From Heptranchias perlo (lineage: Eukaryota), in assembly GCF_035084215.1 (NCBI RefSeq), contig NC_090348.1:26288001-26352000 (forward strand): a DNA stretch of 64,000 nucleotides, read 5' to 3'. A program made the translations under genes and the position numbers. Below the pieces are notes generated by a model. The model saw only the letters and a program-made list of their open reading frames with translations, searched no databases and was not told the DNA's origin. Position 1 is the stretch's first letter. The number at the start of each line of letters is the position of its first letter. Below are positions 3,805-56,663 of the stretch, piece by piece.

Positions 3805-5932
3805 GAGCTTCACAGGGGCTGCAGCCTCCCACACCCTGTGAACAAATGAAATACCGACTCGTCCAGGCCTGGGAGTCCGTGAAATGGCGTAACCGCCTAT
3901 TGGTCGCGACTGCTCTGTGCAACAATCTCCATCCCCAATGGCATACGGGAGGATCCCCGAGTAGAGAGCCCTCCACTGGGGACCCCGCCTCCGCCGAACG
4001 GCAGGCTGGTACGCCAGGGCATGTCCAGGCGAGAGACGAGGGTGAGGAAGTGGAGAATGTGCAGGAGCAGCCCGTACAGGAAATCCGTCCGCGCACAGTG
4101 AAATTTCACGGAGGGTATTTCCGAGTGATGGCTCAAGTTGTGAGGCACAGCCCCCCCCCGAGGGAGGTTTCGGGGCCTGACGCCTATGAGGAATTCCGTC
4201 CGAACAGGGGTCAGCTCGGATGGGATGGCTCCACACGCTTGAGCCTCCTCCACACCCCAAGTGGAGTCAGGGCCGAGTGCCACTTTCAAAGCCCGGATGG
4301 CGGTGGCCGCGTCCCGGACACGCCTCGAGGACATCCGTGCAGCCAGTGTCCCCAGCGCCATCTAGCCCGCCCCTCTGCCATCTAGTACGTCTCTGACTCT
4401 GGTTACCTTACCGGCCAGGGCCCTCTGCTCCGTCAGCCGCGAGCCGCCGAAGCCAACACCGCCGAGGAACGGATTCCTGAGCAGCGGCTCCTGCAGGACG
4501 GCCGCCACCCCTGACGGGGGAGAGCACCGGCAGGAGGCAACCATATTCCAGACCCTGATCAGATCCTGGTAAAAGACAGGCAGCTGCCGCAAAGACGTGC
4601 GGCCGCCTGGTAACGTGATAAACAGGAGCTGCTTGTCGTAGTTCAGACCGTGCAGCCGGCGGAAGAAATATGTCGCCAGTGCACACCATCTAGGAGGATC
4701 CTCAACGTACAGGTATCGCTGCAGGGTCCGAAGGCGGAAAGTCGCCACCTGGGTCGGACGCACACCAGCCCCTGACCACCCTCCCTAAGCGGGAGACTCG
4801 GGACCGCAGCAGCGACCCAGTGTATCCTTTTGGCCCAGCAGAAGTCGACGAGCTTCTTCTGAATCTTGGCGACAAACTCAGAAGGAGGGATCAAAGTGAC
4901 CAACTGGTACCACAACATTGCGGCTACCAGCTGGTTTATGACCAGCACTCGATTCCTGTAGGATAACACTTGGAGCAGTCCTGTCCAGCGCCCTAGGCGA
5001 GCGGTGACGTTGGCCTCCAGCTCTTGCCAGTTCGCCGGCAAGGCTTCCTCGGCAGGGCTAAGGTAGACTCCCAGGTACCGGAGGTACGTGGTGCTCCAGG
5101 CAAAAGGCCGTAGCTCCTCTGGCAGGAAGTCCGCCCGCCACTGACCCACCAGGAGTCCGGAACATTTCTCCCAGTTGATCCTTGCGGAGGACGCGGCAGA
5201 GTACACCTTTTGGCACTCGCACATCCTCTGCAAGTCAACGGGATCCATGACCATGAGGAGCACGTCATCGGCGTAAGCCGAAAGGACGACCTCCACGCCC
5301 GGCTCGCGCAGAGCCAGCCCCGACAACCTCTTCCGCAAGAGGTGCAGGAAAGGCTCCACGCAGACGGTGTATAATTGGCCGGACATGGGGCATCCCTGAC
5401 GCACTCCTCTCCTGAAACGAAGGGGCGCTGTCAAGGATCCATTAACCTTAATCAGACACTTCACGGCAGCGTACAGAAGTTGGATCCAGGCGACAAAATG
5501 CGACCCGAACCCGAAAGCGAGCGGAGTCCCGAATAAGTACTCGTGATCCACCCTGTCGAACGCCTTCTCCTGATCCAGGGAAAGGAAGGCGACCGACAGC
5601 CCAGCCCTCTGGGAATGGTGGATCAGGTCCCGGACGAGGTGGATGTTATCGTGGATTCTCTGGCCCGGGACCATGTAGGACTGGTCGGGATGGGTCATGT
5701 GGGCCAGCATGGTGCCAAGGCGAGCAGACATCGCCTTGGCGAAGACCTTATAATCCGTGCTGAGGAGGGAGACCGGGTGCCAGTTTTTAAGGTGATGGAG
5801 ATCCCCCTTCTTCAGCAGCAGGACGACGACCGCCCTGCGCCACAAAAGCGGCATCTCCCCGGTCGCCAGACTTTTCCCCCAGGACCCGTGCGTAGTCGCG
5901 TCCCAGAAGGCCCTAAGGAACTCCATGGTCAG
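3805..5932 (-). mobile_element. Tx1-type (L1 group) non-LTR retrotransposon fragment: RT plus C-terminal region, truncated and frameshifted
   Basis: ORF 4643-5926 has KNWHPVSLLSTDYK, LDQEKAFDRVDH, GVRQGCPMSG, AYADD; downstream frames give GWRLLHRAVATN. Confidence 0.88.
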
Positions 5933-7167: not shown

Positions 7168-10100
7168 GTAAGTGCTGTAATAGGTTATGTTGTGTTTCTA
7201 AAGCAATTAGTTCTTTTGTTTTTAATGGATGCAATTAGGGCTTCTACGGAGCAGTGTAAAAAAAAATGTTGAAACATAATTTGCAATTCTTCGTCTCCCA
7301 CAAAATATTAAAAAATTTAAAAACAAGCACAAACCACACTTCTAAATGTTATGATTGTTTCTATAATTCATATATTTGGATGCTGTTTGTTTCAATAATG
7401 ATACACCTGCTGCAGAATAAATGAGTGGCTGAATGACTGATGCAAGTACTTCTGATTTGAAATTGTTTTAAGATGCCAGTGTCTAAATAATTTTTAGCTG
7501 AATATCCAGCAGGCAGTGCTGAGTGGTTTCCCCTACAGGGAGGAAAATTGGAAGGTCTGCCACGTAGTTGCTACTGTACTCCTCCAAATAGTTATCTATA
7601 GATCAGTGTTGAAGGAGGCAAATTAGTCTGGGTGGAAATTAATCCTGATGTACCTCCAGCAATCCCAGCTCAGGTGAAGACCTGTCAGAACAAAGTAAAG
7701 TTCCTTCTATATTGTCCCATCAATATAACTAAACCTTATTCTTCAGCTAACCCACTGTGACATTTACATTTTTCATACCAGCTATCCTCGTGACACCTCT
7801 AAGTGAGATTATGAAATTTTCTACCCAAATTATGGTATACTGGGAATCCAACACGACTAGAAAATTGAGTCAAAATTGCCTGAACTGATTTTTTTTATGT
7901 AGAACTCTAGCTGGCAAATAGAGAACTTCTTATGATCCATTTCAATAATCTTGGTAATATTCTGTTTTGGATACATTTTAGCCCAGTTTGCAGTATTGAA
8001 ATACCAGAGCGACTGTCCACTTCCTATGAGAAACTGAAATACTATGGTCTTGTGGAAAGATGCATCCCACTATCTGTTCGAGAAGCCACTGAAGAGGAAA
8101 TTATGTTGGTTCACAGGTTGTACATACATTTAAACTTAAGTACTATTCTGTACTTTTTCCCCCCTTTGAGTGAAAGGTTGGGCAGCAGACCATCTTCCTT
8201 AACTCTGCCTATGCTGGTATCATTCCTAAGGGTATCTAAGCTGACTTGTCATTCAATCTTTTCTCCCCTTTCTTTGTGGCTAAGCAAGCTAGTCTCTATT
8301 TGCATCTCTCCTAGATAGTACTGCTGTGTAGATATTTATTTTACAAATTTCTAATGTCAAATGTTGTGGGACCACATGCTGTTCCTTCATACCACCTATT
8401 TATATACTTTTAAAAACTGTGCTGTACAGTAAAAATCCTGCAATTCCACACTATTTTAATAATTTTATTCAAGATTACTGGCTTCGAACACTGCAGTGAA
8501 GACCTCCAAGAACGCTGTGAATTAATGCCCCTGTTTATATAATAATTTGCAAACTGGAGTGTTTTGCATTTGAGAGTACAGGTACTTCAGACTCCAATGC
8601 AAACAGAGTGGATTCCAGAGAACTGCAATTATTGATTTGCTAACATTCACTTTGGTTAAAAATGTGCTCGAGAATTAAGAATTTTAGTGGGTGCACTATC
8701 TTGTTCTTGTCTTTTTAGTAGATTAAAGCTATATTTCTCAAAACGTTTATGTTTGTTCCTCAATAATATGCCCATCTCTAATTTTACTTCAGATATTTTT
8801 TTTTAAAAATTCGTTCACGGGATGTGGGCGTCGCTGGCAAGGCCGGCATTTATTGCCCATCCCTAATTGCCCTCGAGAAGGTGGTGGTGAGCCGCCTTCT
8901 TGAACCGCTGCAGTCCATGTGGTGACGGTTCTCCCACAGTGCTGTTAGGAAGGGAGTTCCAGGATTTTGACCCAGCGACAATGAAGGAACGGCGATATAT
9001 TTCCAAGTCGGGATGGTGTGTGACTTGGAGGGGAACGTGCAGGTGGTGTTGTTCCCATGCGCCTGCTGCCCTTGTCCTTCTAGGTGGTAGAGGTCGCGGG
9101 TTTGGGAGGTGCTGTCGAAGAAGCCTTGGCGAGTTGCTGCAGTGCATCCTGTGGATGGTGCACACTGCAGCCACAGTGCGCCGGTGGTGAAGGGAGTGAA
9201 TGTTTAGGGTGGTGCATGGGGTGCCAATCAAGCGGGCTGCTTTATCTTGGATGGTGTCGAGCTTCTTGAGTGTTGTTGGAGCTGCACTCATCCAGGCAAG
9301 TGGAGAATATTCCATCACACTCCTGACTTGTGCCTTGTAGATGGTGGAAAGGCTTTGGGGAGTCAGGAGGTGAGTCACTCGCCGCAGAATACCCAGCCTC
9401 TGACCTGCTCTCGTAGCCATAGTATTTATATGGCTGGTCCAGTTAAGTTTCTGGTCAATGGTGACCCCCAGGATGTTGATGGTGGGGGATTCGGCGATGG
9501 TAATGCCGTTGAATGTCAAGGGGAGGTGGTTAGACTCTCTCTTGTTGGAGATGGTCATTGCTTGGCATTTATCTGGCGCGAATGTTACTTGCCACTTATG
9601 AGCCCAAGCCTGGATGTTGTCCAGGTCTTGCTGCATGCAGGCTCGGACTGCTTCATTATCTGAGGGGTTGCGAATGGAACTGAACACTGTGCAGTCATCA
9701 GCGAACATCCCCATTTCTGACCTTATGATGGAGGGAAGGTCATTGACGAAGCAGCTGTAGATGGTTGGGCCTAGGACACTGCCCTGAGGAACTCCTGCAG
9801 CAATGCCCTGGGGCTGAGATGCTTGGCCTCCAACAACCACTACCATCTTCCTTTGTGCTAGGTATGACTCCAGCCACTGGAGAGTTTTCCCCCTGATTCC
9901 CATTGACTTCAATTTTACTAGGGCTCCTTGGTGCCACACTCGGTCAAATGCTGCCTTGATGTCAAGGGCAGTCACTCTCACCTCACCTCTGGAATTCAGC
10001 TCTTTTGTCCATGTTTGGACCAAGGCTGTAATGAGGTCTGGAGCCGAGTGGTCCTGGCGGAACCCAAACTGAGCATCGGTGAGCAGGTTATTGGTGAGTA

Positions 10101-13100
10101 AGTGCCGCTTGATAGCACTGTCGACGACACCTTCCATCACTTTGCTGATGATTGAGAGTAGACTGATGGGGCGGTAATTGGCCGGATTGGATTTGTCCTG
10201 CTTTTTGTGGACAGGACATACCTGGGCAATTTTCCACATTGTCGGGTGGATGCCAGTGTTGTAGCTGTACTGGAACAGCTTGGCTAGAGGCGCAGCTCGT
10301 TCTGGAGCACAAGTCTTCAGCACTACAGCTGGGATGTTGTCGGGGCCCATAGCCTTTGCTGTATCCAGTTCACTCAGCCGTTTCTTGATATCTCGTGGAG
10401 TGAATCGAATTGGCCGAAGACTGGCTTCCGTGATGGTGGGGATATCGGGAGGAGGCTGAGATGGATTATCCACTCGGCACTTCTGGCTGAAGATGGTTGC
10501 AAACGCTTCAGCCTTGTCTTTTGCACTCACGTGCTGGACTCCGCCATCATTGAGGATGGGGATGTTTGCAGAGCCTCCTCCTCCCGTCAGTTGTTTAATT
10601 GTCCACCACCATTCACGACTGGATGTGGCAGGACTGCAGAGCTTTGATCTGATCCGTTGGTTGTGGAATCGCTTAGCTCTGTCTATAGCATGTTGCTTCC
10701 GCTGTTTAGCATGCATGTAGTCCTGAGTTGTAGCTTCACCAGGTTGGCACCTCATTTTTAGGTACGCCTGGTGCTGCTCCTGGCATGCTCTTCTGCACTA
10801 CTCATTGAACCAGGGTTGATCCCCTGGCTTGTTGGTAATGGTAGAGTGAGGAATATGCCAGGCCATGAGGTTACAGATTGTGCTGGAATACAATTCTGCT
10901 GCTGCTGATGGCCCACAGCACCTCATGGATGCCCAGTTTTGAGCTGCTAGATCTGTTCTGAATCTATCCCATTTAGCACGGTGGTAGTGCCACACAACAC
11001 GTTGGATGGTGTCCTCAGTGCGAAGACGGGATTTCATCTCCACGAGGACTGTGCGGTGGTCACTCCTACCAATACTGTCATGGACAGATGCATTTGCGAC
11101 AGGTAGATTGGTGAGGACGAGGTCAAGTAAGTTTTTCCCTCGTGTTGGTTCGCTCACCACCTGCCGCAGGCCCAGTCTAGCAGCTCTGTCCTTCAGGACT
11201 CGGCCAGCTCGGTCAGTAGTGGTGCTACCGAGCCACTCTTGGTGATGGACATTGAAGTCCCCCACCCAGAGTACATTTTGTGCCCTTGCTACCCTCAGTG
11301 CTTCCTCCAAGTGGTGTTCAACATGGAGGAGGACTGATTCATCAGCTGAGGGAGGACGGTAGGTGGTAATCAGCAGGAGGTTTCCTTGCCCATGTTTGAC
11401 CTGATGCCATGAGATTTCATGGGGTCCAGAGTCAATGTTGAGGACTCCCAGGGCCACTCCCTCCTGACTGTATATCACTGTACCGCCACCTCTGGTGGGT
11501 CTGTCCTGCCGGTGGGACAGGACATACCCAGGGATGGTGATGGAAGAGTCTGGGACGTTGGCTGAAAGATATGATTCTGTGAGTATGGCTATGTCAGGCT
11601 GTTGCTTGACTAGTCTGTGGGACAGCTCTCCCAGATGTTAGTAAGGAGGACCTTGCAGGGTCGACTGGGCTTGGTGTTTTGCCGTGGTCGTGTCCGGTGC
11701 CTAGTGGTCCGATGCCGGGTGGTCCGTCCGGTTTTATTCTTATTATGACTTTTCGTAGCGAGATTTTACAACTGAGTGGCTTGCTGGGCCATTTCAGAGG
11801 GCAATTAAGAATCAACCACATTGCTGTGGGTCTGGAGTCACATATAGGCCAGACCGGGTAAGGGCGGCAGGCTTCCTTCCCTAAAGGACATTAGTGAACC
11901 AGATGGGTTTTTACGACAATCCGGTAATTTCATGGCTATCATTACTGATACTAGTATTTTAATTCCAGATTTTATTTTAATTAATTGAATTTTTTAATTA
12001 ATTAATTGAATTTAAATTCGCCAGCTGCCGTGGCGGGATTTGAACTCATGACTCTGGATTTTAGTCCAGGCCTCTGGATTACTAGCCCAGTAACATAACC
12101 ACTATGCTACCGTACCCGGTGTCAGATTGAACTAAGAGACTCACAACATGGTCGCAACTGAGTTATAGGCATAGTGGTTATGTTCAAGTTTTGTATTTCA
12201 TGTATCTTTCTGCTTTTGTCAGTTCCTCGCTTGATGCACTCTTTAAATATCTGAGTGCTATTGTTCCTTGGCTTTGATCTAACTTTTCATTCTGATCTCT
12301 TTTTTTTAACTTTTGAATTACTGAATGTTGATTTAATAGTTAATTCAGTGTACGCAAGAATGATTCCAGGCATGTAGATAGTTTGCAAAATGCAAGCGGC
12401 AAAATACTTCCTGTCAAATGTAGTCTTTTATGTAGGACAACATATAGGAGGAGAGCTTGAGTGCTCTTATTTTAGTAAGTGGGTTGTCATTTGATATTGA
12501 AGTGCATAACCTGTTACATGACAGAAAATGTGTATATATTATAAAATTTAGACACCCTTGGGAATGGTACCAGCATAGGCAGAGATAAAAGCAAACATTG
12601 CACTAAGTTTTGGGGAATGAGTTGGTGCCTCAGTAAATGTCTTGTGACAATGTGTAATTTGGATCTTCTAACCATTTCCAATAAATTTGAGTTCAACAAA
12701 TACTAATTTGCTCCTATAATATGTGACCAGTTTTGAAGCTGTGGAGTATGCCCAACCAGAGGCAAACAGCCTGTTTCCACAGTTCTGCCAATGCCACTTG
12801 GCATTGTTCCTAGGACATGTCTGCCTTGCCTTGTCAACCCAGTCAAGATCAGAAACTCAAACCCATATCCTCCCATTCTGATGCAGGCCATTGGGCACCT
12901 AACAATTTTTAATTAGTTAAACTGATGTTTGAGCTAGATCCCATTAAAGTGTTTTCTTTCTTTAGCCTGGATTACATAGAAGCTGTGAAATCTACTGCCT
13001 CTATGAACATTGAAGAGTTGAAGACCTTTTCATACAATTATAATGATGTATATTTTCACCCTGTAAGTAAATTTTGCACTTGCAACAAAAAAAAAATTCT

Positions 13101-25100: not shown

Positions 25101-28100
25101 AAGAGTAGATATTGTGGGGTGAAAATTGGAAGATGAAACAAAAAGAAAATTCCCTAAAATTCTCTGATTATTGCTGCAGTCCTTGAAGTATAACAGTGAG
25201 GGGGAGGGGGAACGCTGTATATTTTCTGCACCCTTCAGTGAAAGAGCAAAACTGAGCAACTGCAACCTGAAAGAACATTGGACTCCATTTTGGTCTCTCT
25301 GGCTTGCCCCAGAGACGAGTGACATTATTCTGCCTGTGTGACCTCATATTTAATTATGCTTGCGTTTTCAAATTAAATTTGGCTATGAAATGAAATATTC
25401 CAGCATGTAAGGTAATTCACATGAAAATTTCTCATTTTTGAATTATGCAGCAATAGCTATAAAATAAGAAGCAACAAAAAAGGTGTCAATATCATATATT
25501 TATATATATATATAGATATATATATATATATATATATATATTTAGCAAAATAAAGCAACAATATTGCAACAATAATATCGTGGGAAGGCTTTAAGCTAAT
25601 TTAGGTGCAAACACAAAGAATTTCTTTCAATCACTGTTGTACAGGAAAAAATAATATGGAAGGTGGAGGGGAAAAGAACAGATGCAGCCATGCTAGTACA
25701 TATGACAGGCCCAGGCCAACCCCCAAACAATGTGATCGGCAGGAAGAAATACAGAGACCTCCGGAACTCCAACACCACCTGTCCAGAGTAGACATCAGTT
25801 CTTTTTCCTCTCAACCTTCTGTGTTATTTTTTCCTAACAGTGATTACACTTTGAAACCAATTGGCTTGGTTGAGGAGGATGAACTGATTTCATAAATCTG
25901 TTCTGTACTGAGCTTATCTCACTTACAAGAGACAAGCGTAGCTGATTTTAACTGTACAATTTTAAGTGAAGAATGAGAGACTGTTCAGTCTGAAGTTCCT
26001 TGACCATTAACCATCAACCACCTGTAGGAGGGACAACTAAAAATTCACCAATGTATCTACCACACTCCAGCACAGCTGCATTGTTGGTGGACTATTCTAG
26101 ACCAGTGCTTGAGACAATGGGGGCGTCCGCTCTCACTCACATATCTTCTGGTCTTGCCTCTTGGTCCTTGATACTGGATCAAGGAGGTCACATCCATTAC
26201 AGGTATCGCACCCAACTCACAGCATTGTGCCCTGTGCCTTTCTGTAAAGATCTCATCGGGCAACGGAATAGGACATTTAAATTGGCCTTGTTCATTGTAC
26301 ACCACTTTTCAAATACAAGTAGTGTATCTCATCAGATCTATATGCATCCATAGTGGGGTGAAGCCCGTTTTAAATGGGAAAAGTGAAGTTGCAAGAGGGT
26401 TGAAACTCCCTGTTTCATCTCTACTAATGGGTTGACGTCTCACCCTCTCAGTGCTGCCTGGATTTTGTGCTCAAGTCTCTGGAGTGAGACTTGGGCCCGC
26501 GACCTTCTGACTCAGAGGAGGAGTCCTACCACTGAGCCAAGGCTGACACCTGGGGCTCGATTTTAGGGTCGGGTTACCTGCGGGTTTCCAGCGGGGGGGC
26601 CCCGAAAATCCCGATCTCCGATCACGTGACCGGATTCGGACGAAATCCCGGCCACTTCCGGGTACCGCGCTGACGTGCGGGGCTGCGCGCGCAAGCCCCG
26701 CTGGTGGGAATCCCGCAGGCAATTAAAGCCAGCGGGGTTCCACTTGAGAGCACTTAACTTGCTCGTTGTGGTCAGTTAATGAGCTGAAGCAGCTGTCAAA
26801 AGAGGAAGTGTGGGATTTTACGGTCAAAGCAGTCAGTTTCCCACACTGGGGGAAACAGGACCCTTCAAACCAGGCGTGTTGCAGCCAGCAGCCTGTGCCA
26901 GGTGCCAAGGTGCGCTCCACGGGGGAGCGCCCTCACCCACGCAGGAGGCCACCGCGTCACATAGGGCAACCCCTGCCCTCCACCAACCCCCGCCAAGCCA
27001 GAGGACAGACCGACACGAAACCGCAGCCCCAGTCCGAGGACCCACCTACCTACCCTGCACAACCCCTCACACCAACACCTGCCAGATGGGTGGTGCGTTG
27101 ACATCGTCGGAGGACGAACAGGATGACCAGCCCCAGCAGCCTCGCAGTCCACGCCGTCCGCCTCGGAGAGGTGGGGCCCCCCAACACGGTGCTGCGGCAC
27201 ACCCACCTGCACAGCAGGAGGGAGGGCAACCGCAGAGAGAGATGCGTCGCAGGAGGCACTACCCTCCGCACAGGGTGTACAGAGCGAGGCTCAGCTTCAT
27301 GGACCTCTCCGAGGAGCAGTGCATACGGAGGCTCAGAGTCAATCGCCAGGTAGTCGCCGACATCTGCAGCCTCCTTAACGACGAGCTGCTCCCTGATGGA
27401 CCAAGCAGCATCTTCTTACCGGTCGCCGTCAAAGTCACCACTGCCCTCAACTTCTTCGCATCCGGTTCCTTCCAGGGTGCCACCGGGGACATCACCGGGG
27501 TCTGTCAGTCCTCTGCACACAAGTGCATAAGGCAGGTCACCGATGGGTTGTTCCGCAGGGCCTCCCACTACATCAACTTCGCCATGGACGAGCGCAGCCA
27601 GATGGAGAGGGCGGTTGGATTCCATGCCATGGCCGGCTTCCCACGGGTGCAGGGTGTAATCGACTGCACCCACATCGCAATACGGGCACCTCCGCATGAG
27701 CCAGGGCTGTTCATCAACAGGAAGGGGTATCACTCCATGAACGCCCAGCTCATCTGTGACCACCGCCAGAGATTCCTACACGTGTGCGCCAGATACCCCG
27801 GCAGCTGCCACGATGCCTTCGTCCTCAGGGAGTCCGCCGTCCCGCCCATCCTGCAGGCACCCAACGCCGGCAACGGCTGGCTCCTCGGCGACAAGGGGTA
27901 TCCCCTCCACACGTGGCTCATGACACCTCTGAGGAACCCCATCACCGAGCCGGAGCGTCGGTACAATGACAGCCACACTGCTACCAGGTCTACAATTGAG
28001 CAGACCATAGGGCTTCTCAAGATGCGCTTCAGGTGCCTTGATCGTTCTGGGGGAGCGCTCCAATACACACCATTCAGAGTGGGAAGAATCATAGTTGTCT

Positions 28101-31100
28101 GCTGTGCCCTGCACAACATGGCCCAACAGAGAGGGGTGCCGCTGGAGGAGGCCCCATCCACACCCGCCACCCACATTGAGGAAGGCGAGGGCGAGGAGGA
28201 GGAGGAGGAGGAGGAGGAGGAGGAGGCGGAGGAGGAGGACGCACCCGAGGATGTTGGACGACCCATGCGCCGAGCCGCGACTCACTGGGATGGTCGCCGG
28301 GCCAGGGACGCACTCATACGTCAACGGTTCTCCTAGAGTCAGACACTGCGAGGCGCTCGCATCTCCTCACCTGCACATGCGAGCGGCCATACCAGCCCCC
28401 TCCACTGAAGAGTGCTGCCAGTAATCCTGCACCCACAGCAGTGTGCCCAATGGGTGGCAGCAGGTGTTCGCCGTCATGATGGCCTCCACGGAACGCACCT
28501 ATTGCACAAGCCGCGGAAGAATGGACGAGAGGTGGCAGGAGTGGTGAGAATAGACTATTTAATATGTGGAATGTGACATCATTTAAGAAACAAAGTACAA
28601 AATAATAAACACCCTGGTGTATTCCCTTTGTGATTATAAGGCCTTTGGAATTCTTCTCCGGGAACCCCTACGTGGTGCTACCCCTGTGGCTCCAGCAGAG
28701 GTAGTGGCAGGTTGCTCGTCTTCTTGCCTTGACCGGGTAGATGCTTTTGGCGGACGGCCCCTGGGTTTCGGTGCCCGTGAGGGCACCTCCACAGACTGCT
28801 CCTCCTGCACCGGGGCAGGGGCAGACTCGGCCACCTGGAGAGGAGGCACCATTGCGGGTGCTGGTTGAGAGGTGGGCGACGGGTGGGACGTGGGGACGCC
28901 TTGAGAGGCGTCCCCGCTTCCATGTCCCCGGTCACCATCATCCCTCTCTTGGCCTCGGCCCACATCACCCCTTCCACCCTGCTGGACGGCAGTTTGGATG
29001 GCATGTGTGAGGCCTTGCAAGGCCACCCCTAGTATATCCCTCAGCCTGTTGGTGGCGTCGGAATGTTGCTCACCCTGAATCCGTACAGACGTTGTCAGGG
29101 CCTGCAAGGACTCGAAGTGGAGCTGTGCGTGACGCTCGAGGGAGGCCAGCCTGTCCTCCACCGCAGACAGTCCCGCACCTACCCGCGACACTGTGTCGCC
29201 GGTACCCTCCTGTGCCTGCGCCACCAATGCCCACATGCAGGAGGTGGACTCCTCCATCGCCTGCGCTATTGTGGACAATGCGCGCGGCACCTCTGCCAGC
29301 ACCTCAGCAATTAGCTGGTGGCCCTCGACGACTCTCCTTTTCTCTGGTGGCCCCCTGGGTTCAGCATCTGGGTCCGGCTGAGCAGAGCCTGGAGATGAGT
29401 GCTCCCTCCGTCGCGGACCCTCCGCGGCTGCCCCTGCCACCAGGGTCTGCTCATGCTCACTCGTGCGCAGTGACTCACCAAGTGCTACCCCAACTAGTTG
29501 GCGAGGGGGACCCACCGAGGTGCGTGTCTCTGCGCTGGTGGATGGTTGGCTCTGATGTGACGATGCACCCTCAGAGACCGCCATGTCCTCTGAGGAATCG
29601 CCCTCCACGCTCGCTTGATCCAAAGACGCACCTGCAAGAGAACAGAGGGCACTTTGAGGCATGTGGACCAACTTGACAGTGCGCCTGATGGCAGGTGATG
29701 ATACGGTCACTCGCGATCATGGGTGTTGAGTGTCAGCTTTCCCTTACCGGCCGTTTCGGCAGCGACACACTCGCCATCGGCCACCGACAGGCAATGTCGC
29801 GTGCGGGCGAGGTCGAGCGCCTCCACCTCTGCGTCGGTGAGCTCCACCACTTGCGGCGGCCCACCTCCGGTGCGTGCCCTTTCCCGATTGTTCTTGCTCC
29901 TCTTCTCCTGTGAAGGCAAAACACAGATGTGTGAGTGGGTGCGTCTTGCATCGTGAGACGCATCGAGCATCGGTGTGGTTGGGTTGAGCGTGGCGCGGAA
30001 CGGATGGGAGGAAGTGTGGGCCACGTGCCCATCCCATTGCATGGGGATTGGGGTGTGTGGTAGTGTTCGGGTGGGGTCAGGGACGGTGGGTACTTGCGTG
30101 CACGGCGAGGATGGTGAATGAGTGGCTGTGAGGATTGCTGATGGAGCGCAGTGGTGGCTGTGCAGGAGGGGGTTGTGATCTGCTTGGCGTGATGGTGGGG
30201 ACGGGATGTGGGAGGGTGCGTTGGTGTACTCACCTTGCCAGACCTAGTCAGGTCATTGAAGCGCTTGCGGCACTGCTCCCAAGTCCTTGGGGTGTTGCCC
30301 CTGCTGCTCACCTCCGCCGCCACCTCTGCCCATGCCTTCCTGGTTGCGGCGGCAGGGAACTTGCGCCCATCCTCAGGGAAGAGTGTTTCCCTCCTCCTCC
30401 TCACGCCCTCCAGCATCAGCTGCAGTGCCAGATCTGAAAAACGGGGCGCAGCCTTTCCCCTTGGTTGAGCCATTCTCCCAGACCTCTTGCTTGCAGCAGG
30501 AGGGGCTTTGGGAGACTGCCCCTTTAACTGGAGCTCCTACATCGCGTCGACGGTACTGCGCATGCGCAGCCGGCCGGCACGCAGCTGGGGAGCGGAGAAC
30601 CCGGAAGCAGGCCTTAATGGGTCCAATTATCCCGCGATCGCGTGGGGGACGCACACAATTACCCGTCCGCGTTTTCCACGCTCCCGGAGGACCACCCGCT
30701 GGGAACCCGCAGGCCTGCTAAATTCGAGCCCCTGGAGTTTGCATTCTTCCTGGGAAGTAGGAGTTTTTATGGGAAAGTTTTCTTCAGGAGGTTAAATGGT
30801 GGGAGTAGAATTCATGGTAGAGTAGATTCTATATGGACTTGGGTTTGATGGGCCAAATGGTCTTTTTTTTCATTCCATGCGTCTTGTGTTGAATGGTTGG
30901 TTAACAAATGTCCAGCGTTGCAAAATGGGCATTTAGTACATTAATGGGTTCATCTTCCCCTTTGTCCTAATCACTGCGTTAAAATAGTGCAAATACATTA
31001 GCTGGGCACTAAATGTCGCACACAGAAGAAACAGAACCTAAAAGAGTTAAATAGCTTCTGCTGATCATTAAAGCAAACCGACCTTGAGCATAAGATAGAG

Positions 31101-44179: not shown

Positions 44180-45502
44180 TCACAGCACTCACATCCAATC
44201 ATGAATAGTGGGGGACAATTAAGCAACTAATAGGATGAAAAAATTCTTTGAACGTGCCCATCATATAGACAGGGCAGAAGCGTTTGCAACTATCTTCACG
44301 AGAAGGGCCACGTGGACCATCCTTCTCAGCATCCTCCTGAGATGCCATTCTTCATCCAATTCGATTCACTCCACATGACATCAAGAAATGGCTGAGTGCA
44401 CTGGACACCACAAAGGCGATGGGCCCCGACAACAGCCTGGCTGTCGTACTGAAGATCTGTGCTCCAGAACTAGCCATGTCTCTAGCCAAGTTGTTCCAGT
44501 ACAGTTACAAAACTAGCTTCTATCTGACAATGTGGAAAATTGCCCAGGTATGCCCCGTCCACAAAAACAGGACAAATCCAACCTGGCCAATTGCTGCCCT
44601 ATCGGCCAGCTTTCAATCATCAGCAAAGTGATGGAAGGAGCCATCAACAGTGCTATCAAGCGACACTTACTCACCAATAACCTGTTCACCAATACTGAGT
44701 TTGGGTTCCACTAGGATCACTCAGCCTCAGACCTCATTACAGCCTTTGTCTAACATGGACACGAGCTGAATACCAGAGATAAGAGTGACTGCCCTTGACA
44801 TCAAGGTAGCATTTAACTGAGTGTGGCACCAACGAGCCCTAATCAAACTGAAGTCTAATATGTGGTAAGTAACATGCCCCACAAGTGCCAGGCAATGACA
44901 CTCTCCAACAAGAGAGAGCATAACCACCTCCCTTTAACATTGAATGACATTACCATCACCAAATGCCCCTCCACCAACATCCTGGGGGGTTACCGTGACC
45001 AGAAAGTCAACTGGACCAGCCACATAAATGCCGTGGCTACGAGAGCATGTCAGAGTGTGATGAAATACTCTCCTGGATGGGTGCAGCTGCAACAACACTC
45101 AATACCATCCAGAACAAAGCAGTCCGCTTGATCAACACCTCACCCACTAGCCTAAACATCCACCCCTGGCATGCTGTGGCTGCAGTGTGTATTATCTGCA
45201 GGATGCACTGCAGCAACTCTCTAAGACTTCTCTGGCAGTGTCTCCCAAACCTGTGACCTATCTTGAACGACAAGGGCAAAAGGTGAATGGGAACACCATC
45301 ACCTCCAAGTTCCCATCCAAGTCACACACCATCTTGACTTGGACATATATCATAATTTCTTCATTGTTGCTGGATCAAAATCCTGGAACTCCCTCACCAC
45401 GTGGACTGCAGCGTTTCAAGATGATGGCCCAGCACCACCTTCTTGGGCAATACATGCCAACCTTGCCAGTGACACCCACATACCAAGAATGAATTTTAAA
45501 AA
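44180..45502 (+). mobile_element. Older, deleted copy of the 8795-12121 LINE family
   Basis: MGPDN...[15 protein letters not shown]...[12 protein letters not shown]; same 3' tail ending CCCACAT...GAATTTTAAAAA. Confidence 0.88.
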
Positions 45503-55254: not shown

Positions 55255-56663
55255 TCTCATGGTTATGGTCCTGGATTAACAAGTCAAAGGTCATGAGTTC
55301 AAATCCCACCATAGCAAGTTGTGAAATTGAATTCAATAAATCTGGTCACTTGTGGCTCGCACTGGAAAAAATGATCATGAAAGTTGAGGGATTGTTGTAA
55401 AAATCCAACTAGTTTATTAATGTCCTTCAAAGAAGAGAAAGAACCTGCTGCCATTATTCAGTCTAGCCTACATATGACTCCAGTCTCACACCATGTGGCA
55501 GTATGGATACGAAATTGGCTAAGTGAAAGGAAACACAGAGTAGTGGTGAATGGTTGTTTTTTGGACTGGCGGAAGGTATAGAGTGGTGTTCCCCAGAGGT
55601 TGGCACTGGGACCACTGCTTTTTTTGATTTTATATTAATGACTTGGAATTGGGTGTACAGGGCAAAATTTCAAAATTTGCAGATGTCACAAAACTTGGAA
55701 GTGTAGTAAACAATGAGGAGAATGGTAATATACTTCAAGGGGACATAGACATGCTGGTGGAATGGGCGGACACATGGCAGATGAAATTTAAAGCAGAGAA
55801 ATGTGAAGTGATACATTTTGGCAGGAAGAATGAGGAGAGGTAATATAAGCTAAATGGTACAATTCTAAAAGGATGCAGGAACAGAGAGACCTGGGGTATA
55901 TGTGCACAAACCTTTGAAGGTGGCCGGACAGGTTGAAAAAGGGGTTTAAAAGCATAAGGGTTCTTGAGCTTTATAAATAAAGGCATAGAGTACAAAAGCA
56001 AGGAAGCTATGTTGAACTTTTATAAAACACTGGTTCGGTTGCAAATGGAGTATTGTGTCCAATTCTGGGCACCGCATTTTAGGAAGGATGTGAAGGTCTT
56101 GGAGAGGGTGCAGAAAAGATTTAGTGGAATGGTTCCAGGGATGAGGGACTTCAGTTATGTGGATAGACTGGAGAAGCTGGGGTTGCTCTCCTTAGAGCAG
56201 AGAAGGTTGAGAGGAGATTTGATAGTGTTCAAAATCATGAAGGGTTTAGATAAAGTAAATAAAGAGAAACTGTTCCCATTGGTGGGAGGGTCAAGAGCCA
56301 GAGGACACAGATTTAAGGTGATTGGCAAAAGAACCAAAGGTGACATGAAGAAAAACATTTTTACGCAGTGAGTAGTTATGATCTGAAATGCACTGCCTGA
56401 AAGGGTGGTGGAAGCAGATTCAATCGTGGCTTTCAAAAAGGAACTGGTAAATACTTGAAGGGAAAAATTTGCAGGGCTATGGAGAAAGAGCGGGGGAATG
56501 GGATCAACTGGATTGCTCTTACAAAAGATGGGCCAAATGGCCTCCTTTTGTGCTGTAACCGTTCTATGATTCTACATGGTTGACTCTTAATGCCCTCAGC
56601 ATAACTGGGTATGGGCAATAAATGTTACCTTGCTGGTGTCACCCACATCTCAAGAATAAAAAA
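55255..56663 (+). mobile_element. tRNA-head SINE made of the 5' leader and 3' tail of the 8795-12121 LINE family, split by a nested CR1
   Basis: 55255-55497 matches the LINE head and leader (B box at 55295-55305, TAATGTCCTT, TGACTCCAG). 56576-56663 continues TGGTTGACTCTTAATGCCCTC then ATGGGCAATAAATG...CCCACATC-A-tail. Confidence 0.8.
55497..56575 (+). mobile_element. 5'-truncated CR1 LINE nested in the SINE
   Basis: ISKFAD, WQMKF, EYCVQFWAP, RRLRGDLI; tail TTCTATGATTCTA. Confidence 0.9.

Follow-up and report, generated by a model that had tools for sequence, protein, structure and literature searches.

Why should the two ends of a long interspersed element (LINE) in a shark genome be complementary to each other, and does this leave a trace in the copies that the element produces? 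The question arises in a window of 64,000 nucleotides (nt) of Heptranchias perlo (NCBI RefSeq assembly GCF_035084215.1, contig NC_090348.1, positions 26,288,001 to 26,352,000 of the forward strand), within which all positions are counted from the first letter. The window carries a Zenon-type LINE of the CR1 group on its minus strand, with a leader arm able to pair with a segment over the stop codon. The reading preferred here, with a probability of roughly 0.55, is that the LINE RNA closes into a loop through these two arms and that the coding middle is skipped in reverse transcription, repeatedly yielding tRNA-headed copies that resemble short interspersed elements (SINEs). It is very probable that the ends of the RNA are held together when such short copies are made; that pairing between arm A and the stop segment is what closes it is less sure, and the overall figure refers to this fuller claim.

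8797..12117 (-): full-length Zenon-type LINE copy, 3.3 kb, broken, 3' end at about 8797 (protein, reading frame and copy comparison)
11797..11812 (-): arm A, the 5' arm of the reported helix
8859..8874 (-): 3' arm, the last codons and the TAG stop (8865-8863)
8797..8863 (-): 3' tail, a stem-loop (8863-8819) and A-rich end common to all short copies, overlapping the 3' arm by 5 nt

In the minus-strand RNA, 11812-11797 pairs with 8859-8874 over 16 positions, 14 of them Watson-Crick and two G-U. The helix consists of an 11-bp Watson-Crick core (11807-11797) and five further pairs that include both G-U pairs. This agrees with the original prediction of a 16-position pairing between leader and stop region, with an 11-bp core, an extension whose only non-Watson-Crick pairs are G-U, and a 3' partner covering the last codons and the TAG. 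The accompanying claim that the pairing works only on the sense RNA was overstated: the sense helix is the stronger (-22.8 kcal/mol), but the antisense duplex still reaches -17.2 kcal/mol and the core pairs there too. A competing 3' tail hairpin, also proposed at the outset, is recovered by folding at -20.8 kcal/mol; it uses 8863-8858 and overlaps the 3' arm by five bases. The terminal C-G pair requires a G at 8874, which is found in 20 of the 90 young short copies with a letter there, while 69 have A.

The helix ranks first by energy among all ungapped helices in the 3.3-kb element. Nonetheless, an equally stable helix arose somewhere in 82 of 150 dinucleotide-shuffled elements, and the element contains another 11-bp perfect inverted repeat, as would be expected if the complementarity were due to chance and had no role. 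Against this, at least 16 pairs with at least 14 Watson-Crick arose anywhere in only 2/150 shuffles. When the leader (370 nt) was set against the last 120 nt, equal energy was reached in 6/2000 shuffles and 16 pairs with 14 Watson-Crick in 0/2000. The helix is therefore unusual by its length and place, not by energy alone, and the complementarity is a real feature, beyond chance for its position. As the arms also coincide with the edges of the deletions described next, chance complementarity without a role is highly improbable.

Those deletions remove the coding middle of the element, and their breakpoints are bordered by two predicted hairpins.

11746..11776 (-): 5' breakpoint hotspot of head-to-tail deletions, just after the predicted hairpin (57 of the 73 different junctions)
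11773..11795 (-): predicted local hairpin stacked beside arm A, the upstream edge of most 5' breakpoints
8877..8908 (-): predicted hairpin 8901-8877, with the 3' breakpoint peak at its base

With anchors placed in the arms, leader and tail are separated by 0-160 nt in 471 copies and by 161-300 nt in 66, and at 177 genomic places the leader end is joined to the 3' arm within 12 nt. The counts peak at gaps of 40-80 nt and then decay (scaled from 100 rows listed), whereas random deletion would give counts that rise with gap size. A control anchor in the middle of the endonuclease, at the second-best predicted partner of the stop segment, was joined to the tail in 4 of 12,348 copies. Among the first 67 head-bearing young copies of one contig (C1), taken in order of position, nine have lost ~2.9 kb between head and tail, no other in-order deletion exceeds 621 nt, and about a dozen copies end early or leave the fetched stretch. 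Anchors outside both arms recovered 1,454 copies, 70 of which were sampled and gave 44 distinct junctions. Of their 5' breaks, 41 are placed within the 84 nt that follow arm A, one lies beyond this stretch, one inside the arm and one upstream of it (2 inside or upstream vs. 41, p 1e-10). Of their 3' breaks, 37 stop short of the 3' arm or coincide with its start, six are inside it and one is past it. In the pooled junction set (n=73, two mis-split rows dropped), 23 of 63 distinct junctions have their 3' break in 8900-8908, at the base of the predicted hairpin, a window picked post hoc. Ordinary 5' truncations do not cluster there, as 3 of 30 end at or below 8960. Head-to-tail joints were also present in all four contig sets examined from four organisms, as 13 of the 15 joints listed out of 748. 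The short copies are recurrent head-to-tail deletions, formed at a hotspot with a sharp upstream edge. Separately, contigs of two runs join 12117 to 8809 (reported as 'goes back 3309'), representing either tandem copies or an end-joined form.

The short copies have many origins, and some were later amplified. Sampling 70 of the 471 copies gave 43 distinct junctions, 33 of them singletons, and 30 of the 66 longer-gap copies gave 28. Short copies are drawn from all LINE subfamilies, and all 16 sites polymorphic among LINE copies are also polymorphic among them, with both alleles shared. On a tree of the 136 rows with enough coverage they are scattered, requiring 23 label changes against one for a single origin and a mean of 34 after shuffling. 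Together, the two junction counts and the tree scatter rule out descent from one master SINE. Microhomology at the junctions averages 1.18 nt against 0.69 expected and is lacking in 17 of 45. Two amplified classes, with junctions 11796/8865 and 11756/8863 (7 and 8 of the 70), have lost the core of the 3' arm; as these spread anyway, the helix is not needed for amplification of short copies.

Whether the head of these copies is the LINE's own can be asked of the leader, which in the family majority is 350 nt long.

12036..12117 (-): tRNA-like head, its A box at 12109-12099 and its B box at 12047-12036, probably a polymerase III (Pol III) promoter (sequence and box scan)
11813..11935 (-): conserved SINE-type body of the leader, common to the LINE, the short copies and five published shark and ray consensuses
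8863..11765 (-): single endonuclease-reverse transcriptase (EN-RT) reading frame, 973 codons in the family majority, with a basic N-terminal extension kept in frame

The leader had been assigned to the LINE in the original prediction, and this is borne out by the other best-matching copies, 21 of 29 of which begin at 12105-12139. The older LINE subfamilies likewise have a leader, and since other copies, older subfamilies and published consensuses all carry the head, a SINE that landed beside the LINE by chance is ruled out. Pfam matches in the element's frame are to an endonuclease (APE/EN) and an RT, in one open reading frame (ORF) without ORF1, and the closest named protein matches are from amphioxus and crab. 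The window copy itself is dead: its frame has a private TAG at 10800-10798, where 40/40 other copies read have GAG, and an 18-nt in-frame gap near 11631. The family has been recently active, with a frame of at least 940 codons retained in 6 of 60 sampled copies. In the 3.25-Gb genome, a 25-nt motif from the head has 5,778 exact matches, and a tail motif of the same length has 65,519. Sampled copies have A-rich ends, as in the poly-A tail of Zenon LINEs, and one clear 13-nt target-site duplication was seen among the 33 copies inspected, with no others. The body at 11813..11935 is presumably comparable to a V domain, and an Rfam search of 8500-12500 gave nothing at E<=1. At the 5' junction of the window copy, a perfect 16-nt inverted copy of the A-box region (12092-12107) lies at 12169-12184, 52 nt upstream of the element; it is present in 0/20 other full-length copies and perhaps reflects a snap-back.

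These features place the short copies between two known kinds of element. They have the tail shared with a partner LINE and the head with A and B boxes that characterise V-SINEs, without the uniform structure expected from a master lineage separate from the LINE. Like short internally deleted elements (SIDEs), they are LINE ends joined by internal deletion, although their A and B boxes differ from the lack of a Pol III promoter in SIDEs. The short copies work like a SIDE and look like a SINE.

A sequence of five steps could account for their formation. Pol III would first produce an uncapped 3.3-kb RNA, whose stop-codon segment would then pair with the leader, using arm A in the young subfamily and either arm A or a competing site, B, in older ones. 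The result would be a compact domain of the helix and its two flanking hairpins. The exposed loop would sometimes be cut and trimmed back to this domain, a step that we infer. The RT would prime at the tail, displace the helix and reach the trimmed end near 8900. From there, an end-to-end jump would take it to the newly freed leader fragment near 11760, with microhomology of 0-5 nt or one added base. Finally, some products would amplify further from their own Pol III head. A polymerase that skips across the base of the stem is ruled out, because both arms are usually kept. Most jump points lie beyond the 3' arm along the path of the RT, and both arms are retained; cutting and trimming of the loop followed by an end-to-end jump therefore fits best. 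End-to-end template jumping without homology is documented for the R2 RT (PMC12203849, in the part available).

Several results, set out here and in the next paragraphs, weigh against base pairing as the closing agent. The RT must displace the helix before most jump points, so a cut and trim step has to be presumed. Seven of the 44 junctions cut into or past the 3' arm. The 5' edge of the hotspot coincides with the end of the local hairpin, so arm A is not singled out. Recurrent junction classes mostly carry one haplotype each, which indicates amplification from single masters, and 471 therefore overstates the number of independent events. In the old subfamily, whose helix is weaker, 26 of 30 head-bearing copies are short and none enter the body, compared with 9 of 67 in the young one, a contrast that may be confounded by purging of long copies or by amplification. 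Insect Zenons without a tRNA head also yield internally deleted derivatives, according to the accessible text of PMC6740152, and 27 distant LINEs have neither head nor helix.

Some of these results would suit a closure bridged by protein, in which the tail stem-loop and the structured leader are both bound by ORF2p or by a host protein; the breakpoints would then be the borders of protected domains, and the helix would be auxiliary. With two to three mismatches, the old subfamily makes as many short copies as the young one or more, and breakpoints peak at the bases of local hairpins. Precedents in the available parts of the literature include LINE ORF2p that binds tail stem-loops (PMC4176376), an R2 protein regulated by 5' RNA and the 3' untranslated region (UTR) (PMC12203849) and insect Zenons that form SIDEs repeatedly, with no pairing reported in the text seen (PMC6740152). 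Protein bridging leaves unexplained why, of 628 windows, it is the leader arm that pairs best with the stop segment, and why four mismatches became pairs in the young lineage. It is considered unlikely.

Predicted folds complicate the choice of leader partner. The original prediction named one leader partner, arm A, for the stop segment, and a unique partner is not supported.

11875..11899 (-): site B, a second leader site complementary to 8881-8863, competing with arm A

Scanned against the 628 windows, the stop segment has arm A at rank 1 (-28.6) and site B at rank 3 (-24.4); both sites were as strong in 0/300 shuffles and site B alone in 16/300. Cofolding of the young leader and tail gives the reported helix a probability of ~1.0, and of 43 young short copies folded, 41 have it at P>0.5. 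Conversely, in the full-length partition function the reported helix has P 0.002, site B is preferred and forcing arm A costs 2.4 kcal/mol. Cofolds that carry the arm bases found in the old subfamily or in other organisms likewise favour site B (P 0.97 vs. 0.01-0.02). Both of these outcomes belong with the adverse points above. They raise the alternative that the relevant pairing is 11899-11875 with 8881-8863, site B lying where the leader is most conserved, and that arm A is a later, lineage-specific one. Site B is nearly invariant in the five published consensuses, as read by eye in the part of the record available. Its significance alone is weak (16/300), it competes with a local hairpin, P(B) exceeds 0.5 in only 1/43 young short copies, and 5' breaks between 11879 and 11813 are almost absent (1/44), which makes it quite unlikely that site B is the relevant pairing.

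Because the arms lie 30-120 nt apart in short copies, they fold locally there. This would also be seen if no loop formed in cis, the helix being a hairpin left over from an ancestral SINE from which the LINE took its head, and the short copies arising by trans jumps onto prematurely ended head transcripts. V-type SINE bodies are indeed older than sharks and spread more widely, according to the accessible part of PMC4824008. The 3' breaks fall within ~90 nt of the arm, unlike ordinary truncations, and there is no run of four T (T4) near 11760 to act as a terminator. Short copies also track LINE subfamily variants, which indicates that the gains in the helix happened in the LINE lineage. An origin without a cis loop is accordingly very unlikely.

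Conservation of the helix was followed in 184 short copies (125 young, 59 old), many of which were found by anchors overlapping the arms, so that some of the conservation is forced. Covariation, put forward as the check on the original prediction, was not seen: no two-sided compensatory change occurs in the 184 copies or in four other organisms, where the arms barely vary and power is low, and this too counts against closure by base pairing. In the old-subfamily majority, 11811, 11805/8866 and 11804 are mismatched and there is a gap at 8874, and a side lineage has a mismatch at 11803 (13/120). In the four other organisms, 11811 is C (90-100%), 11804 is C or A and 8874 is A (82-96%); one of them has C at 8866, and no further arm position differs at >=15%. 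The pairing across subfamilies that had been expected thus held in part: 12-13 pairs are present elsewhere, and the full 16 only in the youngest subfamily, with three to four mismatches in older subfamilies and other organisms. The 12-13 pairs are old and the full 16 derived. At all four arm positions whose majority differs between the older states and the youngest LINE, a mismatch becomes a Watson-Crick pair; this is one and the same improbable helix, viewed over time, and not a second proof. In the portions available of the published elasmobranch Zenon consensuses, arm A has C at 11811, C or A at 11804 and, in one species, a difference at 11807, which may bear on covariation. Metagenome relatives, with a usable ORF in 27 of 80 loci, have neither A and B boxes nor a complementary run >13, and are too distant to inform.

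The same ends may also serve translation. ARAGORN at default settings found no tRNA in the head; a relaxed threshold gave one match there, which is weak because 23 others arose in 80 unrelated loci. The sense strand of the 3.3-kb family majority has no T4 run vs. 20 A4 runs, individual copies have none (19/29) or one (10/29), and 27 distant LINE ORFs have 6-49. Shuffling of synonymous codons gives 2.06 expected T4 runs and P 0.08 for their absence. The first in-frame Met of the 973-codon majority frame is residue 249. Of 45 length changes that fall between 11759 and the start of EN, 38 are divisible by three (64 of 77 copies scored); as these upstream changes keep the frame, translation likely starts ~30-40 nt after arm A. 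From such hallmarks in the sequence, Pol III transcription and AUG-less initiation appear likely, and the LINE RNA is plausibly an uncapped Pol III transcript. In the segment directly after arm A (11793-11766) there is an in-frame AUG followed by stop codons in the young majority, both stops being open in some copies, and in the old subfamily GUG takes its place. Many EN-RT relatives of 920-1000 amino acids lie on contigs of 3-4 kb, several with predicted starts inside the EN N-terminus, and AUG-less starts may be wider in the clade.

The original prediction held that circularisation could assist cap-independent translation or act as a switch from translation to reverse transcription. A translational role, with 5'-3' pairing driving cap-independent, AUG-less initiation or a switch to target-primed reverse transcription, is compatible with the other readings. 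It would fit the Pol III hallmarks and missing AUG, the frame-preserving length changes (38/45), the position of the 3' arm over the stop codon and tail stem, the two competing leader sites (both as strong in 0/300 shuffles), and a precedent for cap-independent initiation in R2 (PMC12203849, available part). Given the lack of covariation and a T4 absence of only P 0.08, it is tentatively entertained as a possibility well short of even odds. Circularisation itself fared better, in that the head-to-tail deletion fossils indicate that leader and stop region lie close together during copying; two-sided covariation is what it lacks. A head-to-tail deletion hotspot accounts for the feature better than a translation enhancer does, and the purpose of closure may be RNA stability, AUG-less initiation or 5' completion. 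A more far-reaching picture, speculative and on balance improbable, would have a Pol III-made, uncapped, AUG-less LINE mRNA whose stop segment alternates among its own tail stem and the two leader sites, so that the RNA closes for translation and opens for reverse transcription. The V-SINE head and body would then be the functional 5' leader of the LINE, and the shark SINE would be no separate parasite; skipping of the loop would have produced it by accident, hundreds of times over.

Zenon LINEs, SIDEs formed by internal deletion and RT template jumping are already known. Elasmobranch Zenon LINEs (CarCar, RhiTyp, SquAca, ScyCan and HypSab; PMC13343379, accessible parts) resemble the window LINE in length (3.2-3.3 kb), absence of ORF1, A-tail and APE and RT domains. 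A 12-nt window motif matches elasmobranch Zenon consensuses with lengths of 3244-3314 nt, as far as these are available, and the first 400 nt of the five shark and ray consensuses in the supplement agree by eye with the window LINE in head, body, arm A region and N-terminal extension. The available main text does not mention tRNA, has SINE only in a reference and does not describe the head, end pairing or deletion hotspot; the tRNA head sits unremarked in these consensuses, to the extent that they were available. Persaeus SIDEs of lepidopteran Zenon (PMC6740152, accessible text) are likewise formed of the 5' UTR and ORF start joined to the ORF end and 3' UTR, with several origins. Template jumping was proposed for them and 'some structural motif' inferred to favour the deletion. 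The deletion is attributed to a 5-bp direct repeat, and secondary structure, hairpins and complementarity are unmentioned in that text. Unlike the shark short copies, Persaeus has no Pol III head in the account available and about one origin per genus, compared with dozens of junctions per 70 copies in one genome.

R2 and its SIDEs share with the shark elements a single ORF, likely uncapped RNA, a template-jumping RT and internally deleted derivatives that keep both ends, and differ in Pol I co-transcription, an HDV-like ribozyme and rare SIDEs (PMC3414825, PMC12203849, available parts). Bipartite RTE, Ingi and Vingi derivatives are also internally deleted with both ends kept, although the tRNA head of the RTE case was added after deletion and was not the LINE's own (PMC5786205, part seen). 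The pair of HE1 V-SINE and HER1 LINE in elasmobranchs has a tRNA head, a conserved body and a LINE-derived tail (PMC3747384, PMC4824008, available parts). HE1 is described as a SINE that has only its tail in common with the LINE, whereas in the present genome the LINE's own 5' end supplies head and body and the short forms have many different junctions. Element motifs were not found in the supplements of PMC4824008, of which all files but one were searched. The short copies are presumably HE1. In uncapped plant RNA viruses, short complementary arms join the ends by 5'-3' long-range pairing; by comparison, the shark element has no 3' translation-enhancer fold or covariation, and its 3' arm sits on the stop codon. 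The leader-tail pairing and the head-to-tail junction hotspot in a shark Zenon LINE appear to be new, with no prior description of either found in the literature, Ogiwara 1999/2002 and Repbase entries being outside the coverage.

Other features of the window are of separate interest. An older, 5'-truncated copy of the same LINE lies at 44190-45502 (+) with 72-82% identity, and an old head fragment at 55270-55498 (+) with 75% identity. An RT frame from a different LINE clade occupies 4643-5932 (-). At 26783-30536 a DDE_Tnp_4 transposase (+) and a Myb/SANT-like ORF (-), both with long open frames, make up a DNA transposon of the Harbinger type. One shark protein with the annotation aldo-keto reductase-like includes a segment that has 78% identity to the element's RT over 37% of the query, and is probably a gene model that took in part of a LINE.

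The birth of SINEs and the conservation of their central domains are stated as open questions in the accessible parts of PMC5786205 and PMC6887750. In this genome, SINE-like elements arise repeatedly from a recently active LINE, at a site marked by a predicted RNA structure, which makes SINE birth a measurable and mutable process. The pairing may supply the unnamed 'structural motif' behind repeated internal deletions of Zenon (PMC6740152, accessible text). If the head is a promoter, it would break the rule stated in PMC10886601 (as far as available), under which Pol II serves LINEs and Pol III is confined to short SINEs, and would pose a concrete vertebrate case of AUG-less, cap-independent translation.

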